DNA from: a virus
Lineage: Duplodnaviria > Heunggongvirae > Uroviricota > Caudoviricetes
Direction: 5' to 3' (one strand)
IMG/VR virus record: IMGVR_UViG_2724679172_000001
Location: 1 to 11,593 of that record
Length of the DNA: 11,593 bases
Both the position numbers and the translations under genes were made by a program. Shown here piece after piece: positions 1-9,865 of the stretch (positions are counted from its first letter, which is position 1; each line of letters opens with the position of its first letter). The notes beneath the pieces were generated by a model, which saw only the letters and a program-made list of their open reading frames with translations, ran no database searches and had not been told where the DNA came from.

Positions 1-55
1 GTGAGAGTCTGAAATAACCGCAAGCCGGAGATCAGCACCGGTCGCCACAATAACG

Positions 56-142
56 GGAGAGTAGGGAGCATGGTGCTCAAGCGGTCTTGAAAACCGTCCC
101 ATTGCGCAAGCGATGATGGTTCGATTCCATTACTCTCCGCCA
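56..142 (+). tRNA. tRNA-like gene, class II (long variable arm), anticodon UGA, so tRNA-Ser(UGA)-like; atypically short D-arm
   Basis: Manual fold: perfect 7-bp acceptor stem GGAGAGT (56-62) with ACTCTCC (132-138); discriminator G139; encoded CCA 140-142; T-arm GATGG / TTCGATT / CCATT (115-131) with the conserved GTTCGA box; anticodon stem 81-85 with 93-97 and 7-nt loop CTTGAAA (86-92) giving U33 then UGA; 17-nt variable arm (98-114) with a 5-bp stem. The D-arm is only a 4-bp stem with a 5-nt loop, which is unusual. G73 plus a long variable arm plus UGA are mutually consistent with Ser identity. Confidence 0.5.
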
Positions 143-388
143 GTGCAACGTTAAGAGTATTTGGCTAATTAAGCGAATGCCGGAAGCAGAACCGGATCAC
201 CAAATGCGTACAGGCGTCATCGCCGCCCAGCCAGCCAAGTGCTCTTACCATTGCGGTGAATGCGGCTAAGCGCACGCGGAACAGTTAAAACAATCCTCCT
301 TAGTGGTTAAGTCAAACATCCCGGCGTTAATTGTTAACTGGTTAACGTCACCTGGAGGCACCAGGCACCGCAACCTAATAAATACGTC

Positions 389-844
389 ATGTTTATTGAG
401 GGAAAACCAATGTTCGGTAAATTTTTCGGTAAGAAAGTCGCTTCAGCAAAAGTAGAGCTGAAAAGGGTTGAGAATCGCGATCTGATGGAGGCCATTATCG
501 GTGGCTGTTTGTTGGTGTCTGCCGCAGATGGTGAAATCGAAAAGGAAGAAACAGCGAAACTTGATCAGCTTGTCCGCTCTAATCCTCGCTTAAGTCATTT
601 TGGCAACGAAATTACCGCAACAATCACCCGATTTACTGAGCAACTGGAAGCTGGTTTCCGTGTTGGTCGCATGAATATCCTTCGCGAAATTGAAGATATC
701 AAAAATGATCCAAAAGAAGCGGAAGAAGTATTCGTTAACATGCTGACGATTGCAGAAGCGGACGGTGAAATCGAGCCAGCAGAACACAAAGTACTGGAAG
801 AAGTAGGCCGTCGTTTGGGCCTTCGTGTGGAAGATTATCTGTAA
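389..844 (+). CDS. TerB-family (tellurite-resistance TerB-like) protein; resembles the TciA-type gene of P1-like phages. Likely true start is the ATG at 410.
   Basis: ORF in the track. Acidic protein with two ADGEIE-type motifs (AADGEIEKEE, AEADGEIEPAE) typical of TerB domains as I recall them. The second in-frame ATG at 410 has an RBS-like GAGGGA at 398-403 with 6-nt spacing, giving MFGKFFGKK. Sits next to tRNA genes, as the P1 tciA region does. Confidence 0.65.
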   Translation: MFIEGKPMFGKFFGKKVASAKVELKRVENRDLMEAIIGGCLLVSAADGEIEKEETAKLDQLVRSNPRLSHFGNEITATITRFTEQLEAGFRVGRMNILREIEDIKNDPKEAEEVFVNMLTIAEADGEIEPAEHKVLEEVGRRLGLRVEDYL

Positions 845-1008
845 TGATTGGCAAGGCGCGTATTGCGTGCGCCATTGGTTTTCTCGTTTTGTCCGTGCTG
901 GTGGATTTCACCAGCAAAGTGATGTCGGTGTTGGCTGATGGGGCACTGGTTTCAGTAGCTGTGGTATTGCTATTGCCGATTATTAAAGCTGCGTTCAGGA
1001 ACTCATGA
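844..1008 (+). CDS. small hydrophobic protein (54 aa, MIGKARIACAIGFLVLSVLVDFTSKVMSVLADGALVSVAVVLLLPIIKAAFRNS), putative membrane peptide
   Basis: Hand-translated; below the length cutoff of the ORF track. Its ATG (844-846) overlaps the TAA stop (842-844) of the TerB-like gene, suggesting translational coupling. Predicted transmembrane-like hydrophobic stretches. Positional analogy to the small tciB/tciC genes of P1 is an inference. Confidence 0.35.
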   Translation: MIGKARIACAIGFLVLSVLVDFTSKVMSVLADGALVSVAVVLLLPIIKAAFRNS

Positions 1009-1118
1009 TGGATTTTTGGACGTATATTGATAAGAACCCTGGATGGTCTTTGCTATTTCTGCTTGTGATCGTATACGGAGTAGAACAAGTAGCGAAGAAT
1101 CTCAGGCGTCGAAAATAA
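1005..1118 (+). CDS. small hydrophobic protein (37 aa, MMDFWTYIDKNPGWSLLFLLVIVYGVEQVAKNLRRRK)
   Basis: Hand-translated. ATG at 1005 overlaps the end of the preceding small ORF (ATGA overlap with the TGA at 1006-1008). One hydrophobic helix followed by a basic tail. Ends 9 nt before the tRNA. Confidence 0.3.
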   Translation: MMDFWTYIDKNPGWSLLFLLVIVYGVEQVAKNLRRRK

Positions 1119-1127
1119 AAACTAATT

Positions 1128-1203
1128 GGCCCCTTAGCTCAGTGGTTAGAGCTGGCGACTCATAATCGCACGGTCACCGGTTCAAGTCCGGTAGGGGCCA
1201 CCA
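1128..1203 (+). tRNA. tRNA with CAU anticodon; closely resembles enterobacterial tRNA-Ile2 (ileX/ileY type, lysidine-modified to read AUA); would be typed Met(CAT) by anticodon alone
   Basis: 76 nt: GGCCCCTTAGCTCAGTGGTTAGAG...GACTCATAATCGC...GGTTCAAGTCCGGTAGGGGCCACCA. 7-bp acceptor stem GGCCCCT with AGGGGCC, canonical D-arm, anticodon loop CTCATAA, T-arm GGTTCAAGTCC, encoded CCA. The 5' half matches E. coli ileX/ileY as I recall them. P1-like phages are known to carry a tRNA for the rare AUA codon. Confidence 0.85.
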
Positions 1204-1656
1204 TATTTGGTTGTAACACGGCGTATGGCACATGCGTCGTTAGCGGTCTGGTGACGTTAAAGGGGTTACCTTTTCCCCTAGCTCAGGCAACAAACCAGGT
1301 AGCCGGAATGTGCAAGCCCCGTTCATATCGTCGGACCGAGGACTCACCATCCTGGCGATTCGGTGTGACAGCCGGAAGAGTACGGCGCACAACAGGAAAA
1401 GGCGTTTAATTAGCGTGAGCGCCGTTTCCGTTGTGGTAATTGCGGCTATGCGCTCGTGACGAAGCCATTTTCATTCACTACGTTCTGATAAGTGACGTCG
1501 CCAGGAGTGGCTAACCTGGCAGGTGGAGGCACCACCGCCACAACTCCTTTCAATTCATCATATAGCCGCTCAGGCTGTAACCCTTAATTAATACGAAGTT
1601 TCGACATCTCTATCGGTTTAACCGAGGGATGGTCGCGCGTGTAAAAAGGAGACGTT

Positions 1657-2232
1657 ATGTTAACGGCGAACGATAACGCGTATGCAGAAGCAGATCTCAT
1701 ATTGAGTGACTTCATCGGTCAGCGGGAACGCTGGACACAAAAGCGAGAGGAACTTTATGCCTCGTTAGTTCGCAAAGGTGTCAACATTGAAACCGCTCAA
1801 AGCGGCGATATGACGGTAGTCAGTGTTGGATTACATGGTGTGAGCGTGTCCGCAGCCAATCATGAGCCATACGTAGCGTTATCAGAGTCGATGGCAAGGC
1901 TAATTAAGTTTCTGAAGCAAACAGAAGCCAATAATGTTTTCATCGCCAAAAAGAACATCAATTTTTCTGCCGCCGTGTTCTGGATGATGAAGGGGCTTGA
2001 CGCCCGCCGGGCATCATGGCCTAAAGGGAGCTATATGTCGATGTTCCGTGGCAGTATAGGCAGCAAAGAAAAGCTCGTCGAATTCCTGCCGGAAGAAGCA
2101 TTCGATATTGTGGAAGGGTGCGATGTGATGGTTATGCCTCGGCTGGTAATGATGAATGGAGACTTACAGGCACAGACAGACTGGTTCGCCACTGGCGTGG
2201 ATATTATCGCGACTGACTGGGAGGCATTCTGA
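1657..2232 (+). CDS. hypothetical protein (191 aa); C-terminal ~90 aa is a DUF2829/Tad2-like domain paralogous to the C-terminus of the 9880-10542 product
   Basis: ORF with a strong RBS (AAGGAG at 1645-1650). C-terminal FSAAVFWMMKGLDARRASWPKGSY ... DWFATGVDIIATDWEAF aligns with FSDALMWLKDGKKVARRGWNGENQF ... PWVPSVGDLLACDWFVVE of the 220-aa ORF. The shared pattern FS-A--W-K-G--ARR--W--G ... W---V-D--A-DW is visible directly; the DUF2829 name is from memory. Confidence 0.6.
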   Translation: MLTANDNAYAEADLILSDFIGQRERWTQKREELYASLVRKGVNIETAQSGDMTVVSVGLHGVSVSAANHEPYVALSESMARLIKFLKQTEANNVFIAKKNINFSAAVFWMMKGLDARRASWPKGSYMSMFRGSIGSKEKLVEFLPEEAFDIVEGCDVMVMPRLVMMNGDLQAQTDWFATGVDIIATDWEAF

Positions 2233-2624
2233 TGTACGAGACCACAAAATTAAGCATTCACGAAGTATCCAATGTGGAGTGGAATATCGTCACCTGTAAG
2301 ATTGTATCGTGTAATGCTGCGCGTACTGATGCAGGCCATAAGAGCACGATAACAGGCTACATGGTAATGGCTTATAGGGGATTGAGAGTTCGCTTTATCT
2401 GGAAAGCTCGGCAATTGACACCATTCAGAGAGCCGTCAATGCCATTAGAGGTAGAACAGGATTATTTAAGCCTGCCGGAAATAGACGGTGCAACGCTGGT
2501 GGATTCTGATGGTCGTAAGGCTGATTTTGAAGTCAGCTTAAAGGTGGCGCAGGCCGTAATTAATAACTCACGTGGTAAGTGGATCGCTAAGGTAAAACAC
2601 GTCGTTCGCTTATCTCGCTGGTAG
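2232..2624 (+). CDS. hypothetical protein (130 aa), translationally coupled to the upstream ORF
   Basis: ATG at 2232 overlaps the TGA stop at 2230-2232 of the preceding ORF (TGATG). No motif recognised. Confidence 0.5.
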   Translation: MYETTKLSIHEVSNVEWNIVTCKIVSCNAARTDAGHKSTITGYMVMAYRGLRVRFIWKARQLTPFREPSMPLEVEQDYLSLPEIDGATLVDSDGRKADFEVSLKVAQAVINNSRGKWIAKVKHVVRLSRW

Positions 2625-2732
2625 TGTTAGATGAATGGAATTAATTTTCTAATATAACCAACTTTTTGCCAGTCTATACAGAAATAACATTCTCATTATC
2701 ATCCCCTCGGTCATTTCCTGCCTGGGGGATTA

Positions 2733-3125
2733 ATGGAGCATATCAGCAGCGCAGAAATTGCGGATATCATGATTAGGGCTGACTGCTATCTGACAGTCAC
2801 CGAAATCACCACTCTAGCTAAAGAAAAATATCCTCACCTTCATGTTTCACGCGTAAGTGTAACCAACATCATTCGGCATTTTGTGCGGTCAAGCCGAGCT
2901 ATTTGTGAGCTTGATGATCGTGTTTACCCACGGAAATACTGGTTGCATGGCCTGAACGGATATCAGTTCAAGGTGCGCGGGCGCACGCCTGAATACGGTA
3001 GCTTACTGGTTAAAAACTGTAGCAGGAAATCAGTCGAACAGGCGCGAAAAGAGCAACGAGAGCTGGTGGACATGGCGAATAAGCTGTGGAATGCCGCCGT
3101 TAAAAAGCGTGGTGTTGCTTTATGA
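2733..3125 (+). CDS. putative winged-helix DNA-binding protein; positional candidate for an Lpa-like late-promoter activator immediately upstream of pacA
   Basis: RBS GGGGGA 5 nt upstream of the ATG; stop overlaps the pacA start (ATGA at 3122-3125). Sequence LTVTEITTLAKEKYPHLHVSRVSVTNIIRH looks like an HTH. In P1, lpa lies directly upstream of pacA. The function is by synteny only. Confidence 0.45.
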   Translation: MEHISSAEIADIMIRADCYLTVTEITTLAKEKYPHLHVSRVSVTNIIRHFVRSSRAICELDDRVYPRKYWLHGLNGYQFKVRGRTPEYGSLLVKNCSRKSVEQARKEQRELVDMANKLWNAAVKKRGVAL

Positions 3126-4486
3126 GTCTGGTTAATTGGGAGGAGCACCGCGCCCGCTTTATAGCGTTGCGTGAAGAAAAAGGGATCACTGTAAAGGAAT
3201 ACTGTGAGGAGCATGGCCTTAGCTTCAATACAGCCAGAAAGCATCTCAATATGAAAAAAAATGAGGTGCGGTCGCAGGTAAAGACAACAAAAAAAAGCAC
3301 CAAATCACCTGAAAAAAAACGGGCGGGAAGAGCAACAAAAAAGCTGGAAGAGGGTGCAGAAAAAACAAAATTTACAGAAATTGACAATTCGCAGGGCGCA
3401 GGTTCTTTCCGAAGTATGCCGAGAAAGAAAACTTCGGATCATGAAAATAATGCAAATAATAACAATGAGATAAAAGAATCTGTCAGGAGATCATTGCGCG
3501 AAAAAATGGCGAAAATGATCCCCGAAGAAGATAAAAGCGCCCCAAAAATTGAGGGATCTTCAGCAATGATCCCTGGCGGTGCTGTGCAGCGTGCCACATT
3601 GCCCACTACGAATGTGGCTCGCGATATGATGAAGAACGGCGCAGAAGAACACCTGCGGTTAGCAATTCAAATGGCGCAAGAGCGCGCACTTCAGTATCAA
3701 AGCATTGTTGATCAGGAGGCCGAACGTCTACAGGCGGAAATAGACGCCTTGGGCGATAAAGAGCCAGAAGGAATGCACCCTGGGCAGCGCCTTCTCGGTC
3801 TAATCAGTGACGCTGCCTACTACATGAATGATTTTATCAGTAGGTTGGCAGCTATATATCAGTCCGAACAAAAGCTGCGACAGGGGGATGAAAAGCTTCG
3901 TCAGAGCGCTCGCCAGCAAGCATTCAAAGAGGCTGAGGCCAGAGAAAAACTCGAATTAGCACGCCTACAGGCCGAACAGCGTGGCAAAGAGATTGAATAT
4001 CGCATTGGCGCTGACGCACGCGCAGCCAGAGTTATCGCCGCCGCTATACGTATGCGTGAGCGCGAGGAACTGGATGATATCGGTGTTGCTGAATACATCG
4101 AGCGCCAGGGGGTCAGCGTCCCGGCTATCCTCGCGGCGCGCGCGGCGAAAGCTATCACTCTTCTCGAACCACCTGTTTCTGACGTCAATGATGTTGATGA
4201 TGAACAGCTGGACAAAGAGGCAAGGGAGTTTGCGACGCTTCAGGCTAACCATCCGCAATGGCTGGCAGAGCGCCGGGCGGATGTGGCAACCATTGTTGAA
4301 GAATTGGGGTGCGGAGATTACGACCGCAATGGCGAGCGTAAAGCTGGAGAATTCGAGGCCAACGACGAAGAGCTGGATATTGACCCTTCGGCAACGGCTG
4401 AAATTTACGGTGATTATGATGCATCTGATGCAGGGTATGACGCCGGAGATGAAGATATCGCGATAGAACCGCCGGAGGATGATTAA
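3122..4486 (+). CDS. pacA: terminase small (pac-recognition) subunit, PacA-like
   Basis: N-terminus MSLVNWEEHRARFIALREEKGITVKEYCEEHGLSFNTARKHL follows the HTH pattern of the P1 PacA N-terminus as I recall it (W--H--F--L---G-T---Y--E--L--NTAR--L). Long acidic C-terminus. Immediately upstream of, and translationally coupled to, the large terminase gene (TAATG at 4484-4488). Contains a GATC-hexamer cluster. Confidence 0.8.
   Translation: MSLVNWEEHRARFIALREEKGITVKEYCEEHGLSFNTARKHLNMKKNEVRSQVKTTKKSTKSPEKKRAGRATKKLEEGAEKTKFTEIDNSQGAGSFRSMPRKKTSDHENNANNNNEIKESVRRSLREKMAKMIPEEDKSAPKIEGSSAMIPGGAVQRATLPTTNVARDMMKNGAEEHLRLAIQMAQERALQYQSIVDQEAERLQAEIDALGDKEPEGMHPGQRLLGLISDAAYYMNDFISRLAAIYQSEQKLRQGDEKLRQSARQQAFKEAEAREKLELARLQAEQRGKEIEYRIGADARAARVIAAAIRMREREELDDIGVAEYIERQGVSVPAILAARAAKAITLLEPPVSDVNDVDDEQLDKEAREFATLQANHPQWLAERRADVATIVEELGCGDYDRNGERKAGEFEANDEELDIDPSATAEIYGDYDASDAGYDAGDEDIAIEPPEDD
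3436..3714. other. candidate pac (packaging initiation) site: cluster of Dam-site hexamers (NGATCN) inside pacA
   Basis: GATC-containing hexamers at 3436-3441 GGATCA, 3488-3493 AGATCA, 3516-3521 TGATCC, 3554-3559 GGATCT, 3567-3572 TGATCC and 3709-3714 TGATCA; five of them fall within 137 bp. The P1 pac site is known to lie within the 5' part of pacA and to consist of clustered TGATCA/G hexamers whose methylation controls cleavage. Confidence 0.45.
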
Positions 4487-5994
4487 TGGCTGGAGGGCGC
4501 AAGATTAAATGCGTCACCAGCGATCCACGCTGGCGCGATATGGTAATCAAATACCGCTACAACTTTACCCAGGCTGTTGTCGATATTTTTGGGATGTTCC
4601 CCTCCCACCAGCAGCAGCAGATCATTCAGTCCGTGCAGGAAACGGGGAGTAGGACGACCGTCACGTCCGGACACGGAACTGGGAAGTCGTCCCTTACCGC
4701 GATGTTGCTGTTGATTTTTATGATCCTGTTCCCCGATGCCCGTGTCATCATTGTTGCTAACAAGATAGGCCAGGTAAAAACAGGCGTATTCAAATACGTT
4801 AAACAGTATTGGGCGAATGCAGTTAAGCGTCATGGGTGGTTGCAGACCTATTTTGTCCTCTCTGACACCATGTTTTATGAGCGCTCCCGTAAGGGGATTT
4901 GGGAAGTTCTCTGCAAAGGTTATCGACTCGGCAACGAAGAAGCGCTGGCGGGGGAACATGCGGCACATTTGCTTCTAATTCTGGATGAAGCATCTGGTAT
5001 ATCTGATAAGGCGATCGGCGTAATGACCGGTGCTCTTACTGAAGAAGATAACCGGATGTTGATGCTATCCCAGCCAACAAGGCCAAGTGGTTATTTCTAC
5101 GATTCGCACCATTCTCAAGCAAAAACCCCAGACAACCCGAAAGGGATCTGGACAGCAATTGTTCTTAACTCGGAAGAATCACCGTTCGTCACACCACAAT
5201 TCATCAGGCAGAAGCTTCTGGAATATGGTGGGCGCGATTCTATTGAGTATATGGTCAAGGTGCTTGGTCAGTTCCCACGAGAAATTAACGGCTATTTGCT
5301 TGGTCGTGATGAATGCGATCGCGCTGCTCGCCGCAAGGTGTTGTTGGAGAAAAACTGGGGATGGGTGGCAACGGCTGACGTTGGTAATGGGCGAGATAAG
5401 TCGGTCCTCAACATCTGCAAGGTATCTGGTCACAGGGATAAGCGGCGCGTTGTTAACTTTAAGGTAATGGAGATGCCTGGCACTATGGACCCATTGGCCT
5501 TTGCTGACTTTATATATAACGAATGTACGCCGGAAAAATACCCGAATATAACAATCGCGGTTGATGCCGATGGTTTTGGTTCTGATACGTGTGCGCAGTT
5601 GGTACGTCGTGGTGCGAACCCGGTACGTATTCGGTGGGGAAAACCCATGTTTGCGAACAAAGACAGGGAGCGATTTGTTAATCAGCGTGCCTACGCAAAT
5701 ATTATGGCGCGTGATGCCATAAAGTCAGGGCGTATGCGGATAGACAGTGACCCTAAAACGGCAGAGCAAGCGTCAAAAATCCCCTTTTTACTGAATGAGG
5801 AAGGGAAAATGGCGATGATGCGCAAAGAGCACATGCGGCAAAAGCTAAACATCAAATCGCCTGACCGATGGGATACCTACTGCTTCACTATGCTGGTGGA
5901 CTATGTGCCTGCTAATGAAGATATTGGTGCCGAAATGGCAACTTTCCGAGATCAGGTTCTGGCGGATATCGAAATGCCGGATCTGGATATATAA
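4486..5994 (+). CDS. pacB: terminase large subunit (ATPase/nuclease), PacB-like
   Basis: Walker A VTSGHGTGKSS, Walker B LLLILDEASG, ~500 aa, directly downstream of and coupled to pacA. Gene order matches the P1 pacA-pacB arrangement. Confidence 0.85.
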   Translation: MAGGRKIKCVTSDPRWRDMVIKYRYNFTQAVVDIFGMFPSHQQQQIIQSVQETGSRTTVTSGHGTGKSSLTAMLLLIFMILFPDARVIIVANKIGQVKTGVFKYVKQYWANAVKRHGWLQTYFVLSDTMFYERSRKGIWEVLCKGYRLGNEEALAGEHAAHLLLILDEASGISDKAIGVMTGALTEEDNRMLMLSQPTRPSGYFYDSHHSQAKTPDNPKGIWTAIVLNSEESPFVTPQFIRQKLLEYGGRDSIEYMVKVLGQFPREINGYLLGRDECDRAARRKVLLEKNWGWVATADVGNGRDKSVLNICKVSGHRDKRRVVNFKVMEMPGTMDPLAFADFIYNECTPEKYPNITIAVDADGFGSDTCAQLVRRGANPVRIRWGKPMFANKDRERFVNQRAYANIMARDAIKSGRMRIDSDPKTAEQASKIPFLLNEEGKMAMMRKEHMRQKLNIKSPDRWDTYCFTMLVDYVPANEDIGAEMATFRDQVLADIEMPDLDI

Positions 5995-5996
5995 AA

Positions 5997-6013
5997 GCCC
6001 CGCGATGCGGGGC
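5997..6013. terminator. GC-rich hairpin between convergent genes (pacB on plus, 345-aa gene on minus); likely bidirectional intrinsic terminator
   Basis: GCCCCGC (5997-6003), loop GAT, GCGGGGC (6007-6013): perfect 7-bp stem. An A-run lies just upstream on the plus strand, which is a U-tract for minus-strand transcripts. Confidence 0.5.
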
Positions 6014-6022
6014 CGGTTGTGA

Positions 6023-7060
6023 TTACCAGAGCTTCGCGGCGTACTGCGTTTGGGGGAATGTGTATCCGTAACGTTCTTCGATTGCTTTGCCGTATTTTTT
6101 ACGAGCTTCATTCAGTTTAATGCCGGTCAGGTCGTCTCCAGAGGCCATCATTACGTCTAACAATTCCAGATCCATTTTATCCAACCTTGCCATTGCTTCA
6201 CGTGATGTACGTATCTTACGTTCAATGATATGGCGAATAGCCGGATCGGCATCCTCCAGCATCTTAGCGGATTTCTGCTTAAGGCTTTCATTGCGAATAT
6301 CGATGTTCCTTAAGATGTACGACTTCGCAACGTAGCTTGGCTGGTGTTTTTCCAGGTCACGAACACGATATAAGTTAAAATCGCCGAGAAGGCTGCATGG
6401 TACCGATTCGACGCCAGAATAAATTGTAATGCTCCGGCGTTCACCAACATTATTGACAACGGGGATCGTTGTCTTCGGTAGTCTTGCGAAAACCAATGCG
6501 CCATGTGCGCCAACTCTAAAGCGAGAAAGGGCATTGCTGCCTTCGATGTTTGTTGTCAGCACAACATCTGTATATGCCTCTTTACGCGCCCGGTAGATCT
6601 CGCCTTCAGGCTCAGCTTCAAAGAAGCGCTGTTCTTCTTCAAGAGCACCTACGATTTGAGAAAAAACCCTATTTTTCAGGCTTTTCTTTATGATTTTGTC
6701 GTATTTTTTTAGCAATTGTTCACGTGTAAATGTACGTGTTGTTGTAGCGCTTTGCACAACGACATGCGTGCTTTGATTGGTGTCCTCAATGATGAATGGG
6801 ATCGGAGAATATACAGACTCAACAATGTTCGACGCTTTGCCGTCGGCATCGCGGCACATGTCAACGAAGGCTTTCCATTCAGCAAGACATTTTTCAGCTT
6901 CTTCTAATATGTTTTGGTCATGCGTTAATGCAACATGGCGGAATTCCTCGCCAGCATAACTGGTATCATGGAAAACAGAGTTTGCGACCACCAGCTCTTT
7001 CCACCGTTCAGCGGTTTGCAGGAACCGTTTGTACTCTTTCTCGATCGACTTCTTACTCAT
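6023..7060 (-). CDS. hypothetical protein (345 aa) occupying the position of the P1 c1 immunity repressor (convergent with pacB, adjacent to the lox-type site); function unassigned
   Basis: Long ORF on the minus strand with an RBS-like AGGAAT before the ATG (reverse complement of 7061-7071). No catalytic motif recognised. I could not see convincing similarity to the P1 C1 sequence as I remember it. Looks somewhat more AT-rich than its neighbours by eye. Confidence 0.65.
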   Translation of the reverse strand: MSKKSIEKEYKRFLQTAERWKELVVANSVFHDTSYAGEEFRHVALTHDQNILEEAEKCLAEWKAFVDMCRDADGKASNIVESVYSPIPFIIEDTNQSTHVVVQSATTTRTFTREQLLKKYDKIIKKSLKNRVFSQIVGALEEEQRFFEAEPEGEIYRARKEAYTDVVLTTNIEGSNALSRFRVGAHGALVFARLPKTTIPVVNNVGERRSITIYSGVESVPCSLLGDFNLYRVRDLEKHQPSYVAKSYILRNIDIRNESLKQKSAKMLEDADPAIRHIIERKIRTSREAMARLDKMDLELLDVMMASGDDLTGIKLNEARKKYGKAIEERYGYTFPQTQYAAKLW

Positions 7061-7270
7061 TATTCCTACTCGATTTAGTTTTCTAACATAAAATTACTAT
7101 GACAAATTTATGTCGAATAACAGGGTGAGTAAAGGATCGAACTGTGATTTTTTGTCATCAATTTTAGAAAACCAACCGTAGAAACCACACTTCGCAAATT
7201 AAAGACCATGAAGGCAACGTGTTACTGGTCATCATCAATCTATGATGGATTAAAAAAAATCGGCATTTTA

Positions 7271-7302
7271 TAACTTTAAATAATTGGCATTATTTAAAGT
7301 TA
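7271..7302. other. rox-type recombination target site for the adjacent Dre recombinase (14-bp inverted repeats around a 4-bp spacer)
   Basis: TAACTTTAAATAAT TGGC ATTATTTAAAGTTA: the right arm is the exact reverse complement of the left arm. The 32-bp sequence is the reverse complement of the rox site as I recall it (TAACTTTAAATAATGCCAATTATTTAAAGTTA). The outer ATAACTT also matches the loxP arm start. Lies ~150 bp upstream of the recombinase gene. Confidence 0.85.
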
Positions 7303-7311
7303 GGCTATAAT
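7284..7311 (+). promoter_or_regulatory. candidate sigma70-type promoter overlapping the rox site and reading toward dre
   Basis: -35 TTGGCA (7284-7289, spanning the rox spacer), 16-bp spacer, -10 TATAAT (7306-7311). Recombinase binding at rox would be expected to occlude it. Confidence 0.35.
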
Positions 7312-7454
7312 CATGGGTAGATGATCAGTGTTGACATTACTAAAAATACGTGTCTCGAATCAAAGGCTTGTATTTTGAAAATTAACTTGTAGCTACCCTG
7401 TCATTTTTATATTTTTCGCGTAGCGTCATCTGTATATAGAGGCGAAATAGTTTC

Positions 7455-8483
7455 ATGAGTGAATTAATTATCTCTGGCAGTTCCGGTGGTTTTCTGCGCA
7501 ACATTGGCAAAGAGTACCAGGAAGCCGCAGAAAACTTTATGCGGTTCATGAATGACCAGGGGGCTTACGCGCCGAATACTTTGCGCGATCTCCGGTTAGT
7601 GTTTCACTCCTGGGCGCGATGGTGCCACGCTCGCCAGCTCGCCTGGTTCCCGATCTCACCAGAGATGGCCCGCGAGTATTTTCTTCAGCTGCATGATGCT
7701 GATCTGGCTTCGACCACCATTGATAAGCACTACGCCATGCTTAACATGCTGCTTTCGCATTGTGGCCTTCCGCCACTTTCGGATGATAAAAGTGTTTCTC
7801 TGGCTATGCGGCGCATCCGGCGCGAAGCGGCAACGGAAAAAGGCGAACGAACAGGCCAGGCTATACCGCTGCGGTGGGACGATCTGAAACTGCTCGACGT
7901 CCTGTTGTCCAGGTCAGAACGGCTGGTGGACCTGCGTAACCGGGCTTTCCTCTTCGTTGCATACAATACGCTGATGCGAATGTCTGAAATCTCGCGTATT
8001 CGTGTAGGAGATCTGGACCAAACAGGTGACGCTGTCACGCTACATATTTCACACACGAAGACAATAACGACCGCCGCCGGGCTTGATAAGGTGCTTTCCC
8101 GTCGCACTACCGCAGTGCTGAATGACTGGCTGGATGTTTCCGGGCTTCGTGAATATCCTGACGCGGTGCTGTTCCCGCCGATACACCGTAGCAATAAAGC
8201 CAGGATTACGACAACTCCCCTTACTGCACCTGCAATGGAGAAAATATTCAGCGACGCCTGGGTGTTGCTGAATAAAAGGGATGCCGCGCCAAACAAAGGG
8301 AGATACCGGACGTGGACCGGGCATAGTGCTCGTGTCGGGGCCGCTATCGATATGGCTGAAAAGCAGGTGTCTATGGTGGAGATCATGCAGGAAGGAACCT
8401 GGAAGAAACCGGAAACACTTATGCGGTATCTGCGCCGTGGCGGCGTGTCTGTGGGGGCTAATAGCCGCTTGATGGATTCGTAA
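7455..8483 (+). CDS. dre: Cre-family tyrosine site-specific recombinase, Dre
   Basis: 342 aa. Aligns along its length with P1 Cre from memory (for example HSWARWCHARQLAWFP against RSWAAWCKLNNRKWFP; LSDDKSVSLAMRRIRRE against PSDSNAVSLVMRRIRKE; GHSARVGAAIDMA against GHSARVGAARDMA; catalytic Tyr in LMRYL). The N-terminus MSELIISGSSGGFLRNIGKEYQEAAENF matches Dre of phage D6 as I recall it. A perfect rox site lies upstream. Confidence 0.9.
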   Translation: MSELIISGSSGGFLRNIGKEYQEAAENFMRFMNDQGAYAPNTLRDLRLVFHSWARWCHARQLAWFPISPEMAREYFLQLHDADLASTTIDKHYAMLNMLLSHCGLPPLSDDKSVSLAMRRIRREAATEKGERTGQAIPLRWDDLKLLDVLLSRSERLVDLRNRAFLFVAYNTLMRMSEISRIRVGDLDQTGDAVTLHISHTKTITTAAGLDKVLSRRTTAVLNDWLDVSGLREYPDAVLFPPIHRSNKARITTTPLTAPAMEKIFSDAWVLLNKRDAAPNKGRYRTWTGHSARVGAAIDMAEKQVSMVEIMQEGTWKKPETLMRYLRRGGVSVGANSRLMDS

Positions 8484-8544
8484 ATTAAATTTCTAACACA
8501 TCTTTTTAGATTGATATCTTTGCTGTAAAGTACCCTCGCCTATT

Positions 8545-8901
8545 TTGGAGGGTGCTTTGCAGAGTCAAATCACGGAATCAAGACGCTTCACGGTGGATGG
8601 TTACACCGTAACCTTCGCCGCTGGTGTTAAGAACAGTCATGCTGTCGTTGTATTCGGCATCATGACCGGGCTTGAGGCCGTCCCTGTGTTTACCCTCGAA
8701 AAAAACTGGCGAAATCTGGAGGAAGCGGAAAGCTACGTCCGGAAAGTAACCATCATTGCCGCCGAAAAACTCCTGGCTCACTATCAGGAAAATTATCGCA
8801 CTATGGTCGAGAAAATTAATCTCGCTTTCACTCGCCCCACTACAGGCTTCATCGCACCGGAGACTAATACAGGTCGCTATCCTGCAAGGGGGCGTCGGTG
8901 A
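8545..8901 (+). CDS. hypothetical protein (up to 118 aa; start uncertain), first gene of the post-dre operon
   Basis: ORF in the track. The 8545 start is a TTG; an in-frame TTG at 8557 is preceded by GGAGGG (8547-8552); in-frame GTG at 8593 and ATG at 8662 are alternatives. Stop TGA at 8899-8901 overlaps the GTG start of the next ORF. Confidence 0.45.
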   Translation: MEGALQSQITESRRFTVDGYTVTFAAGVKNSHAVVVFGIMTGLEAVPVFTLEKNWRNLEEAESYVRKVTIIAAEKLLAHYQENYRTMVEKINLAFTRPTTGFIAPETNTGRYPARGRR

Positions 8902-9374
8902 AAAATTATTACCCATCTCTGAATTGTTACCCGTCTTCGTATCCGGAATTGTCCGGGAAGCTGTTAGCTCTATTGGCTAAATCACCAACTGAATGGTTTA
9001 AGCCTGTCGTTATCAATCCGCACTTCCTGGATTACGGATCTGTTCGCACTCGTAACGAACTCAAAAACCTGCTGGCGCATGGATTCATTCGACACCGTGC
9101 CGGGAAAGGCTATCAGTTAGCGATTTCGCCAGAAGAGGCCGTGCAGCTATTCGCATATCGTGACAGCCAGACAAAAGCTCGGGTAATAGCTCAAATACTT
9201 CATAACGGCAGCACCTATGCCCGCCAGTTTGGCGGCGACACGTCGCAGTTCTTGCGGGCGGTGCGATCGCTGGAGGAGCAAGGAGTTATTGAAAGTTCCT
9301 GTATTCCTGTTCCTACCGTTCCACATATCAAACGTCGGGTTTACACCTTCACGCAGAGAGCTAAAAAACAATGA
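8898..9374 (+). CDS. hypothetical protein (158 aa), possible winged-helix DNA-binding protein
   Basis: GTG start with RBS AGGGGG (8886-8891) at 6-nt spacing. Coupled both upstream (GTGA) and downstream (ATGA at 9371-9374). The region LSGKLLALLAKSP...GFIRHRAGKGYQLAISPEEAVQLF resembles MarR/winged-helix recognition helix plus wing; this is pattern-based, not verified. Confidence 0.5.
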   Translation: MKNYYPSLNCYPSSYPELSGKLLALLAKSPTEWFKPVVINPHFLDYGSVRTRNELKNLLAHGFIRHRAGKGYQLAISPEEAVQLFAYRDSQTKARVIAQILHNGSTYARQFGGDTSQFLRAVRSLEEQGVIESSCIPVPTVPHIKRRVYTFTQRAKKQ

Positions 9375-9865
9375 TTTACGTAAAAGTGAAACGCCTACAT
9401 CCGGCAGCAAAACTTCCAGCTTATGCCACCTCCGGATCGGCGGCGATGGATTTTGAGGCTGTTGAAATAAAACCATGTGTCGATAGCAATGGTGCAATTT
9501 CCTCAAGCTGGTGGGTGTACACCGGACTGGCTATGGAGATCCCGCCCGGCTGGTGTCTGAAACTCTATCCGCGTTCCGGATTGGGCTGCAAAAAACATAC
9601 TCGCCTGGCTAACTGCGTAGGAATTATCGACTCCGATTATCGCGGTGAAATCATGGCAAAACTGATTACAGATCCCGGTGGTGAAGGCGTTTGCCTCAAG
9701 CCAGGAATGGCGGTCATGCAAGGCATTTTTGAGCGTGTTGAACCGGTATCGCTGGTAGAAGTTGATGAACTCGATGAAACAGAGCGAGGCGCTGGTGGCT
9801 TTGGTAGCACATCGGAAGACCGCGTTGAAATCAAGCGTACACCGCTTCAGTACGCAAAGTTTTAA
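9371..9865 (+). CDS. dut: dUTP diphosphatase (trimeric dUTPase)
   Basis: The five canonical dUTPase motifs are present: GSAAMDF (I), YPRSGLG (II), GIIDSDYRGEI (III), MAVMQGIF (IV), RGAGGFGSTSE (V). Confidence 0.9.
   Translation: MIYVKVKRLHPAAKLPAYATSGSAAMDFEAVEIKPCVDSNGAISSSWWVYTGLAMEIPPGWCLKLYPRSGLGCKKHTRLANCVGIIDSDYRGEIMAKLITDPGGEGVCLKPGMAVMQGIFERVEPVSLVEVDELDETERGAGGFGSTSEDRVEIKRTPLQYAKF

Follow-up and report, generated by a model that had tools for sequence, protein, structure and literature searches.

A serine tRNA gene with a probable 8/4 cloverleaf in a D6-type, P1-family plasmid prophage

Introduction

tRNAs with an 8/4 or 9/3 acceptor branch were found among the false positives of the Rfam model for the selenocysteine tRNA (tRNASec), and (8/4) tRNASer species have been reported in phages (Mukai et al. 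2017, PMC5389517, Nucleic Acids Res 45:2776). In that paper, 8/4 allo-tRNAs with serine identity were shown to be folded, processed and serylated in E. coli, and to be used there by EF-Tu and the ribosomes (PMC5389517). Both classes were described from metagenomes, and their tests in E. coli were confined to foreign genes. The present analysis concerns a serine tRNA gene with anticodon UGA (tRNA-Ser) at positions 56..142 of the virus record IMGVR_UViG_2724679172_000001, the whole 11,593 nucleotides of which are called the window below. It is probably a functional gene of a D6-type, P1-family plasmid prophage, whose product would adopt the 8/4 fold, be charged by the host and read UCA. A natural 8/4-type serine tRNA would then already be resident in E. 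coli, in common plasmid prophages (P7, D6 and a type of ~110 kb) and in rV5-like phages. Being natural and tractable, this system could be used to ask for what reason a non-canonical tRNA body is retained by some phages.

The tRNA gene and its fold

ARAGORN called tRNA-Ser(tga) on the + strand, its anticodon starting at tRNA position 33, at exactly the place where an earlier note on this DNA had proposed a class II tRNA of the Ser type. The product is a class II tRNA of 87 nt; its anticodon is UGA (Ser), its discriminator is G73, and the CCA end is encoded in the gene. This strand folds better than its shuffles (z-score -2.97), and U33, A37, the T-loop UUCGAUU, the GG of the D-loop, G73 and the CCA end are all intact. 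The marks by which E. coli seryl-tRNA synthetase (SerRS) identifies its tRNAs are the long variable arm, G2-C71, A3-U70 and G73, and all of these are present. Neither a promoter nor a terminator consensus was found flanking the gene in the window.

Three drawings of the cloverleaf were compared. The earlier note drew a 7/5 fold with a 4-bp D-stem (a), and ARAGORN drew a 7/5 fold in which a 1-nt spacer precedes a D-stem GGG/CUC with 9 nt in its loop (b). The third drawing (c) is the 8/4 fold, with a pair between nucleotide 8 (A63) and U131, a T-stem of four pairs and a variable stem closed by C100 and G115. Relatives were gathered from annotated phages and from a scan of IMG/VR whose pattern left positions 8, 49 and 65 free, and the family filter was used without requiring the eighth pair, which exposed some relatives of the 7/5 form only. 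Covariation was then read from a MAFFT alignment of 38 distinct relatives with serine anticodons (UGA, AGA, GCU or CGA), the discriminator being G73 or U73.

In this alignment, 94.6% of the cloverleaf cells are paired and 25 of the 26 pairs have changes on both sides; none of 500 shuffles matched the pairing of the alignment, and slid controls gave 38-54%. The eighth acceptor pair of the 8/4 fold, 8:65 (A63-U131), is paired in 35 of the 38 relatives (AU 24, GC 8, UA 2, UG 1), and the closing pair of the variable stem, which uses "nucleotide 49" (C100-G115), is paired in every one (CG 29, GU 3, UA 3, GC 2, UG 1). The alternative pair of the 7/5 fold, 49:65, can be formed in 31 (GU 22, GC 7, UA 2). 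When Watson-Crick pairs alone are counted, 8:65 is found in 34 relatives and 49:65 in nine, the latter being broken in seven. In a set of 50 class II tRNAs with compact D-arms, six form only 8:65 and 11 only 49:65; most of these 11 have non-Ser anticodons, the Ser ones being L040 and L051.

Nearest-neighbour energies of the window's tRNA sequence agree with the alignment. The 8/4 cloverleaf was given -33.3 kcal/mol, close to the unconstrained minimum free energy (-33.6 kcal/mol); the 7/5 cloverleaf with the same D-arm was given -29.9 kcal/mol and is less stable by 3.4 kcal/mol, and the drawing of ARAGORN reached -23.1 kcal/mol. RNAalifold, run from the alignment alone, returned an 8-bp acceptor stem, a 4-bp T-stem and a variable-stem pair 48:66. 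When the window tRNA is drawn as 7/5, its acceptor stem and T-stem can be formed with a G49.U65 wobble, and the drawing has A instead of U at position 8, a 3-nt connector to the D-stem and no nucleotide left for position 48. Covariation, energies and RNAalifold all favour 8/4, which is thus the better-supported and most likely fold, and the statement of the earlier note that the acceptor stem and T-arm are canonical was probably wrong.

The shortened D-arm described in that note has held up. Its register, GAGC/GCUC, covaries among the relatives (GGGC/GCCC, GCUC/GAGC, GUCA/UGAC, GCUA/UAGC and GCGGA/UCCGC), whose D-arms have stems of 4-6 bp and loops of 3-6 nt; in the window the arm can be read as a 4-bp stem with a 5-nt loop or, if an A-U pair closes, as a 5-bp stem with a 3-nt loop. 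The D-arm of ARAGORN was rejected, being present in 10 of the 38 relatives and about 10 kcal/mol worse. Hence, for this locus ARAGORN finds the right gene, while the structure it draws is not the conserved one.

Nine close variants of 87 nt were also compared. Twelve of 15 changed pairs stay paired, four of them through double compensatory changes (in L107, for example, a C-G pair of the variable arm has become U-A), and three break. The broken pairs are a D-stem pair in D6 (A12->C, giving C.U), a variable-stem pair in L020 and the optional fifth D-stem pair in a Klebsiella plasmid copy. The A-U pair that is mismatched in D6 has become G-C in the Klebsiella plasmid copy and G.U in L139. The D-, anticodon and T-loops are invariant, and the only unpaired substitutions are two, in a linker base and a variable-loop base.

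In the 8/4 cloverleaf, the 8-bp acceptor stem would be stacked on the 4-bp T-stem to give 12 bp in total, as in normal tRNAs, with a 2-nt connector, a compact tRNASec-like D-arm and the last base of the variable arm paired inside the variable stem. Such a tRNA would presumably be processed and charged with serine by the host synthetase, and delivered by EF-Tu. The parts of the gene are listed in Table 1.

Table 1 Parts of the tRNA-Ser(UGA) gene in the window, divided according to the 8/4 fold, which is the most likely one
Feature	Position	Strand	Basis
Whole tRNA-Ser(UGA) gene, 87 nt, CCA encoded	56..142	+	ARAGORN; RF01852, 43.5 bits; P7 and many plasmids have the identical 87 nt
Acceptor stem, 5' strand, 8 nt, GGAGAGUA	56..63	+	pairs with 131-138; includes G1-C72, G2-C71 and A3-U70
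GG connector from acceptor stem to D-stem, 2 nt	64..65	+	first base G in 33/38 relatives
Compact D-arm, GAGCA-UGG-UGCUC, 13 nt	66..78	+	tRNASec-like; GG of D-loop kept; 4-6 pair types per stem position
AA connector from D-arm to anticodon arm	79..80	+	AA or AAA in 30/38 relatives
Anticodon arm, GCGGU-CUUGAAA-ACCGU, UGA at 88-90	81..97	+	all 5 stem pairs covary
Long variable arm, 18 nt: CC and 6-bp stem CAUUGC/GCGAUG with GCAA loop	98..115	+	closing pair C100-G115 in 38/38 relatives
T-arm, 4-bp stem, AUGG-UUCGAUU-CCAU	116..130	+	100% of cells paired; all 4 pairs covary; 4 bp in RNAalifold
Acceptor stem, 3' strand, 8 nt, UACUCUCC	131..138	+	alignment, energies, RNAalifold
Discriminator G73 (139) and encoded CCA (140-142)	139..142	+	sequence; end of ARAGORN gene

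Rfam matches and public annotation

At the curated thresholds of Rfam, the sole tRNA reported in the window is one at 1128-1200 (RF00005, 66.2 bits), and the general tRNA model RF00005 stays below its 29-bit gathering cut-off at 56..142. In a permissive search, the best family for 55..139 was tRNA-Sec (RF01852), with 43.5 bits and E=1.3e-7 at a gathering score of 47, and this model outcompeted RF00005 within the clan. All seven relatives tested likewise had tRNA-Sec as their best family (34-44 bits), and canonical class II neighbours in the relatives matched RF00005 at 46-51 bits.

The public records are uneven. The RefSeq record of D6 has an annotated tRNA-Ser, with the remark that there is an apparent UGA Ser anticodon and that tRNAscan-SE made no amino-acid call. 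The rV5 copy was credited by its annotators to ARAGORN ("discovered using ARAGON"), the record of P7 has no feature over its identical 87 nt (L002 2041..2127), and PGAP, which annotates the gene in hundreds of plasmids, labels it as tRNA-Ser and occasionally as tRNA-OTHER. The outcomes of tRNAscan-SE are taken from these annotators' remarks and PGAP labels. The non-canonical architecture of the tRNA would explain this disagreement between tRNA finders, together with the miss by RF00005. As a separate point, the three tRNA features of the D6 record (NC_050154.1 7145..7850; L001, L135) lie on the strand opposite to the genes called by ARAGORN, and the CAU tRNA called by ARAGORN at L001 4113..4188 is missing from the record.

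Source and spread

Positions 17..9675 of the window are 96-97% identical to Escherichia phage D6, a plasmid prophage of the P1 family, and the genes found there (TerB/TciA, DUF3927/TciB, Lpa, PacA, PacB, a C1-like repressor and a Cre-like recombinase) match a D6-like source. P7 carries the identical 87 nt. Classic P1 has no tRNA-Ser, its slot between trnT and tciA being filled by plp and upl on the opposite strand. The earlier note had expected a repertoire different from that of P1, and this difference stands; the novelty that it implied does not, as D6 and PGAP already annotate the gene and the class is published.

Of 5,426 complete E. coli genomes, 331 have the tRNA-Ser, and plasmids account for 334 of its 336 places there; it was also found in 577 plasmids of PLSDB (Escherichia 319, Klebsiella 223, Salmonella 20, Shigella 13), of which 566 are non-mobilizable. 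Its sequence is also conserved in records of phages (351) and of E. coli genomes (335). An identical tRNA occurs in a second type of plasmid, of ~110 kb, where it lies inside an Asn-Tyr-Thr-Ser cluster and adjoins genes for a ligase, Gp49, a glutaredoxin and an integrase. Copies of ~90% identity were found in rV5-like Vequintavirinae, and relatives of 73-79% identity in Klebsiella Sugarlandvirus and Jiaodavirus, in Acinetobacter Saclayvirus and in Pseudomonas and Streptomyces phages. Members of this conserved family thus occur in phages of several bacterial phyla. A scan of one genome per species for the subfamily pattern gave three contigs of metagenome-assembled genomes and no Enterobacterales representative, a result that is uninformative on host range. 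From the location on plasmids and phages and the lack of a match in an Enterobacterales representative, it was concluded that the tRNA is cargo of mobile elements in enterobacteria and not a host gene.

Similarity between plasmid types often stops exactly at the 3' end of the tRNA (matches ending at 143), and hence this end looks like a mosaic junction. Some 70 nt 3' of the tRNA (roughly 165-235, within 143..235 on the + strand) are kept together with it in the unrelated, lytic rV5-like phages. The rV5-type Ser tRNA is also carried, at the 90% identity seen in E. coli Vequintavirinae, by 18-19 records named "Campylobacter phage", which may be rV5-like phages with questionable host labels; two of them, C2 and A140 (records MG065655.1 and MG065674.1), have ~140 kb.

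Codon usage and possible role

Codon usage was compared between 46 coding sequences of D6 (14,443 codons) and 39 of K-12 (12,889 codons). UCA occurs 14.5 times per thousand codons in D6 and 7.8 times in K-12 (1.87-fold, Fisher p=1e-7); no Ser codon is commoner in D6, and none is rarer in the K-12 sample. Codons cognate to the other three phage tRNAs are likewise among the most enriched in D6, AUA by 3.1x, ACA by 2.1x and AAU by 1.7x. This bias fits codon supplementation, in which the phage tRNA would read UCA, along with other UCN codons, and would benefit the phage by supplementing a codon that it uses about twice as often as the host.

With respect to regulation, the slot in P1 and P7 lies 3' of the C1-controlled Pban/Oban, in the ban operon, according to those records. 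An operator search recovered the two C1 operators of P7 as a positive control and found no P1-type C1 operator within three mismatches upstream of the D6 tRNA cluster. In the D6 region L001 1100..2400, upstream of tRNA-Asn, positions 1222..1250 resemble a promoter, and between pmgS and tRNA-Asn there is a strong terminator-like hairpin (1938..1955).

Alternative explanations

Several observations weigh against a functional (8/4) tRNASer that supplements UCA. Three relatives (L011, L040 and L051) lack the 8:65 pair; two of these, L040 and L051, form 49:65 and L011 forms neither. Within the subfamily of the window itself, position 8 is always A, 65 always U and 49 always G; a 7/5 fold with G49.U65 is therefore also possible from sequence alone, and the preference for 8/4 in the window's own sequence is due to energy and to homology with the relatives. 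The relatives were chosen for a compact D hairpin, which brings some circularity into the D-stem statistics. In several rows the D-arm was misaligned by MAFFT, and the 75.5% pairing of the D-helix is therefore an underestimate. In D6, the change A12->C gives a C.U mismatch in the D-stem, and some copies carry the PGAP label tRNA-OTHER. The 1.9-fold enrichment of UCA is moderate, and AGA/AGG are more enriched although no phage tRNA reads them. If the tRNA were a canonical 7/5 class II tRNASer, its only oddity would be the short D-arm, with a G49.U65 wobble and A8 unpaired, and its role in translation would be the same. This is rather unlikely. The wobble can be formed in the window and its counterpart in most relatives, ARAGORN draws 7/5, and L040 and L051 form only 49:65; against this stand the weaker energy, the seven relatives with 49:65 broken, the constant and covarying use of nucleotide 49 in the variable stem, the choice of 8/4 by RNAalifold and the sub-threshold score of RF00005 at a place where the tRNA-Sec model scores best. 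The earlier note had offered a decaying tRNA or a tRNA-like structural element as an option. In this reading the gene would be a decaying tRNA pseudogene, or a tRNA-like element that serves structure or recombination and takes no part in decoding. The miss by RF00005, the tRNAscan-SE problems noted by the D6 and rV5 annotators, the D6 mismatch, the tRNA-OTHER labels and the frequent end of inter-plasmid similarity at the tRNA 3' end could be read in this way, but all stems covary, most changed pairs are kept, the loops are invariant, the functional bases of loops and 3' end are intact and the family spans phages of several bacterial phyla. Given this conservation of pairs and loops and the published activity of 8/4 allo-tRNAs in E. 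coli, a pseudogene is very unlikely, and decay is contradicted by the compensatory substitutions. A selenocysteine tRNA, or another recoding or suppressor tRNA, would account for tRNA-Sec being the best Rfam match and for an acceptor stem of 8 bp and a compact D-arm; it is next to inconceivable and was rejected, since the anticodon UGA reads UCA (Ser) and is not a UCA anticodon reading the UGA stop, the branch has 12 bp (8+4) and not 13, and the score stays below the threshold of 47; nor are there sel genes in the window.

A role in anti-defence would make the gene a divergent back-up tRNASer that replaces host tRNASer depleted by a nuclease or toxin of the host or of a competitor, and so sustains phage translation, with the 8/4 body and D-arm forming a poor substrate. 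Replacement of host tRNAs by nuclease-resistant phage tRNAs, through changes in the anticodon loop, has been published as a general hypothesis (PMC10264068). Candidate counter-defence or stress genes lie nearby (TerB/TciA, TciB and a Tad2-like protein), which is circumstantial, and identical or near-identical copies move between unrelated phages and plasmid prophages. The 7-nt anticodon loop, however, is the same as in host serT, so that the signature described in PMC10264068 is absent; evasion of anticodon nucleases through the loop was rejected for this reason, and only the tRNA body could then be the source of resistance, if there is any. The match to codon usage gives a simpler explanation. 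We know of no E. coli nuclease with tRNASer(UGA) as its target, and none was found. The anti-defence role is thus improbable. Much the same doubt attaches to the broader idea that the 8/4 body and tRNASec-like D-arm alter behaviour towards enzymes of the host or of competitors, be it as a nuclease- or toxin-proof back-up or through binding of the selenocysteine synthase SelA, which recognises long D-stems (PMC7590224). As the tRNA is resident in ~6% of complete E. coli genomes, altered enzyme behaviour of this kind, if true, could be tested directly in a standard model organism.

Neighbouring elements

A second tRNA of the window, with anticodon CAU, lies at 1128..1203 on the + strand and is canonical; ARAGORN calls it Met, and the P1 and P7 records give its homologue as tRNA-Ile2 (ileX-like and presumably lysidine-modified). 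Just upstream of tciA, positions 252..372 (+ strand) have a sub-threshold match to the small RNA (sRNA) family STnc100 (39.4 bits, gathering score 47). Matches of 82-87% to this segment occur in 4,481 of the 5,426 E. coli genomes, K-12 derivatives included, mostly on the chromosome and at up to nine places per genome, and one of them overlaps an annotated dicB; the segment looks like a leader or sRNA element of lambdoid or cryptic prophages. The open reading frame at 1657..2232 (+ strand, 191 aa) has a Pfam Tad2-like domain (Thoeris anti-defence 2) over residues 102-190 (37.7 bits, cut-off 25), and its counterpart in D6 is annotated only as "orf6 hypothetical protein".

Two further tRNAs were observed in rV5. 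One is a "tRNA-?(atcc)" of 99 nt that ARAGORN calls about 100 nt downstream of the Ser tRNA (L004 590..688; also L003 2690..2788 and L005 589..687); its anticodon loop has 8 nt, it matches RF00005 at 35.5 bits and, by eye, it has a long extra arm and possibly a D-arm with a 6-bp stem and a 4-nt loop. The tRNA-Tyr of rV5 (L004 200..282) likewise has the tRNA-Sec model as its best match, at 33.7 bits.

Comparison with known systems

The host tRNA of the same anticodon, serT, was found on the chromosome in 5,426 of 5,426 E. coli genomes. The two tRNAs share the anticodon UGA, an identical 7-nt loop CUUGAAA and a near-identical anticodon stem, as well as G1-C72/G2-C71/A3-U70, G73, the long variable arm and the encoded CCA. 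The sequence of serT reads as that of a canonical 7/5 tRNA, with U8 and ~17 nt in its D-arm; the D-arm of the window tRNA has 13 nt, in the 8/4 fold its A8 pairs with U65 and its T-stem has 4 bp, and it is plasmid-borne in 331 of the 5,426 genomes. It departs from a canonical class II tRNASer in falling below the RF00005 gathering score and in lacking U8 with a 2-nt connector, and its D-loop has 3-5 nt, with GG retained, against the canonical ~8-11 nt with G18 G19.

Bacterial tRNASec has an acceptor branch of 13 bp (8/5). The window tRNA resembles it (RF01852, E. coli selC) in the 8-bp acceptor stem, the 2-nt connector, the compact small-loop D-arm and the long variable arm, and differs from it in the anticodon (UGA, not UCA), in the T-stem (4 bp, not 5) and in the D-stem (4-5 bp, not 6). 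The P1 tRNA genes (trnA for Asn, trnT for Thr and trnI for Ile2, in the C1-controlled ban operon) occupy the same slot in the same orientation as the window tRNA-Ser, the shared order being Asn and Thr upstream, and tciA, tciB and the CAU-anticodon tRNA downstream; in P1, plp/upl on the opposite strand take the place that the Ser tRNA has in P7, D6 and the window. Unlike tRNA-Ser, the three remaining phage tRNAs are of canonical class I; like it, they have cognate codons that the phage over-uses.

The closest described relatives are the (8/4) tRNASer species. The main-text phage examples of that class come from unidentified metagenomic phages and alpha-proteobacterial phages, whereas the window derives from an enterobacterial plasmid prophage; the main text of PMC5389517, as distinct from its supplements, makes no mention of P7, D6, rV5 or enterobacterial plasmids as carriers. 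The D-stem of 4-5 bp and loop of 3-5 nt are also shorter than the "long stem and tetraloop" given there for the allo-tRNAs (PMC5389517). Like the class, the window tRNA has a branch of 12 bp (8+4), a compact D-arm of the tRNASec type, a long variable arm with G73 as discriminator, a Ser anticodon and a location in phage-borne tRNA clusters, and it surfaces as a sub-threshold match of RF01852, as the class did at its discovery. At the level of sequence, it thus appears to have every feature by which (8/4) tRNASer is recognised. Since the gene is already annotated in D6 and the class is already published, nothing fundamental is changed; the window tRNA is a member of that published class and not a new kind of element.

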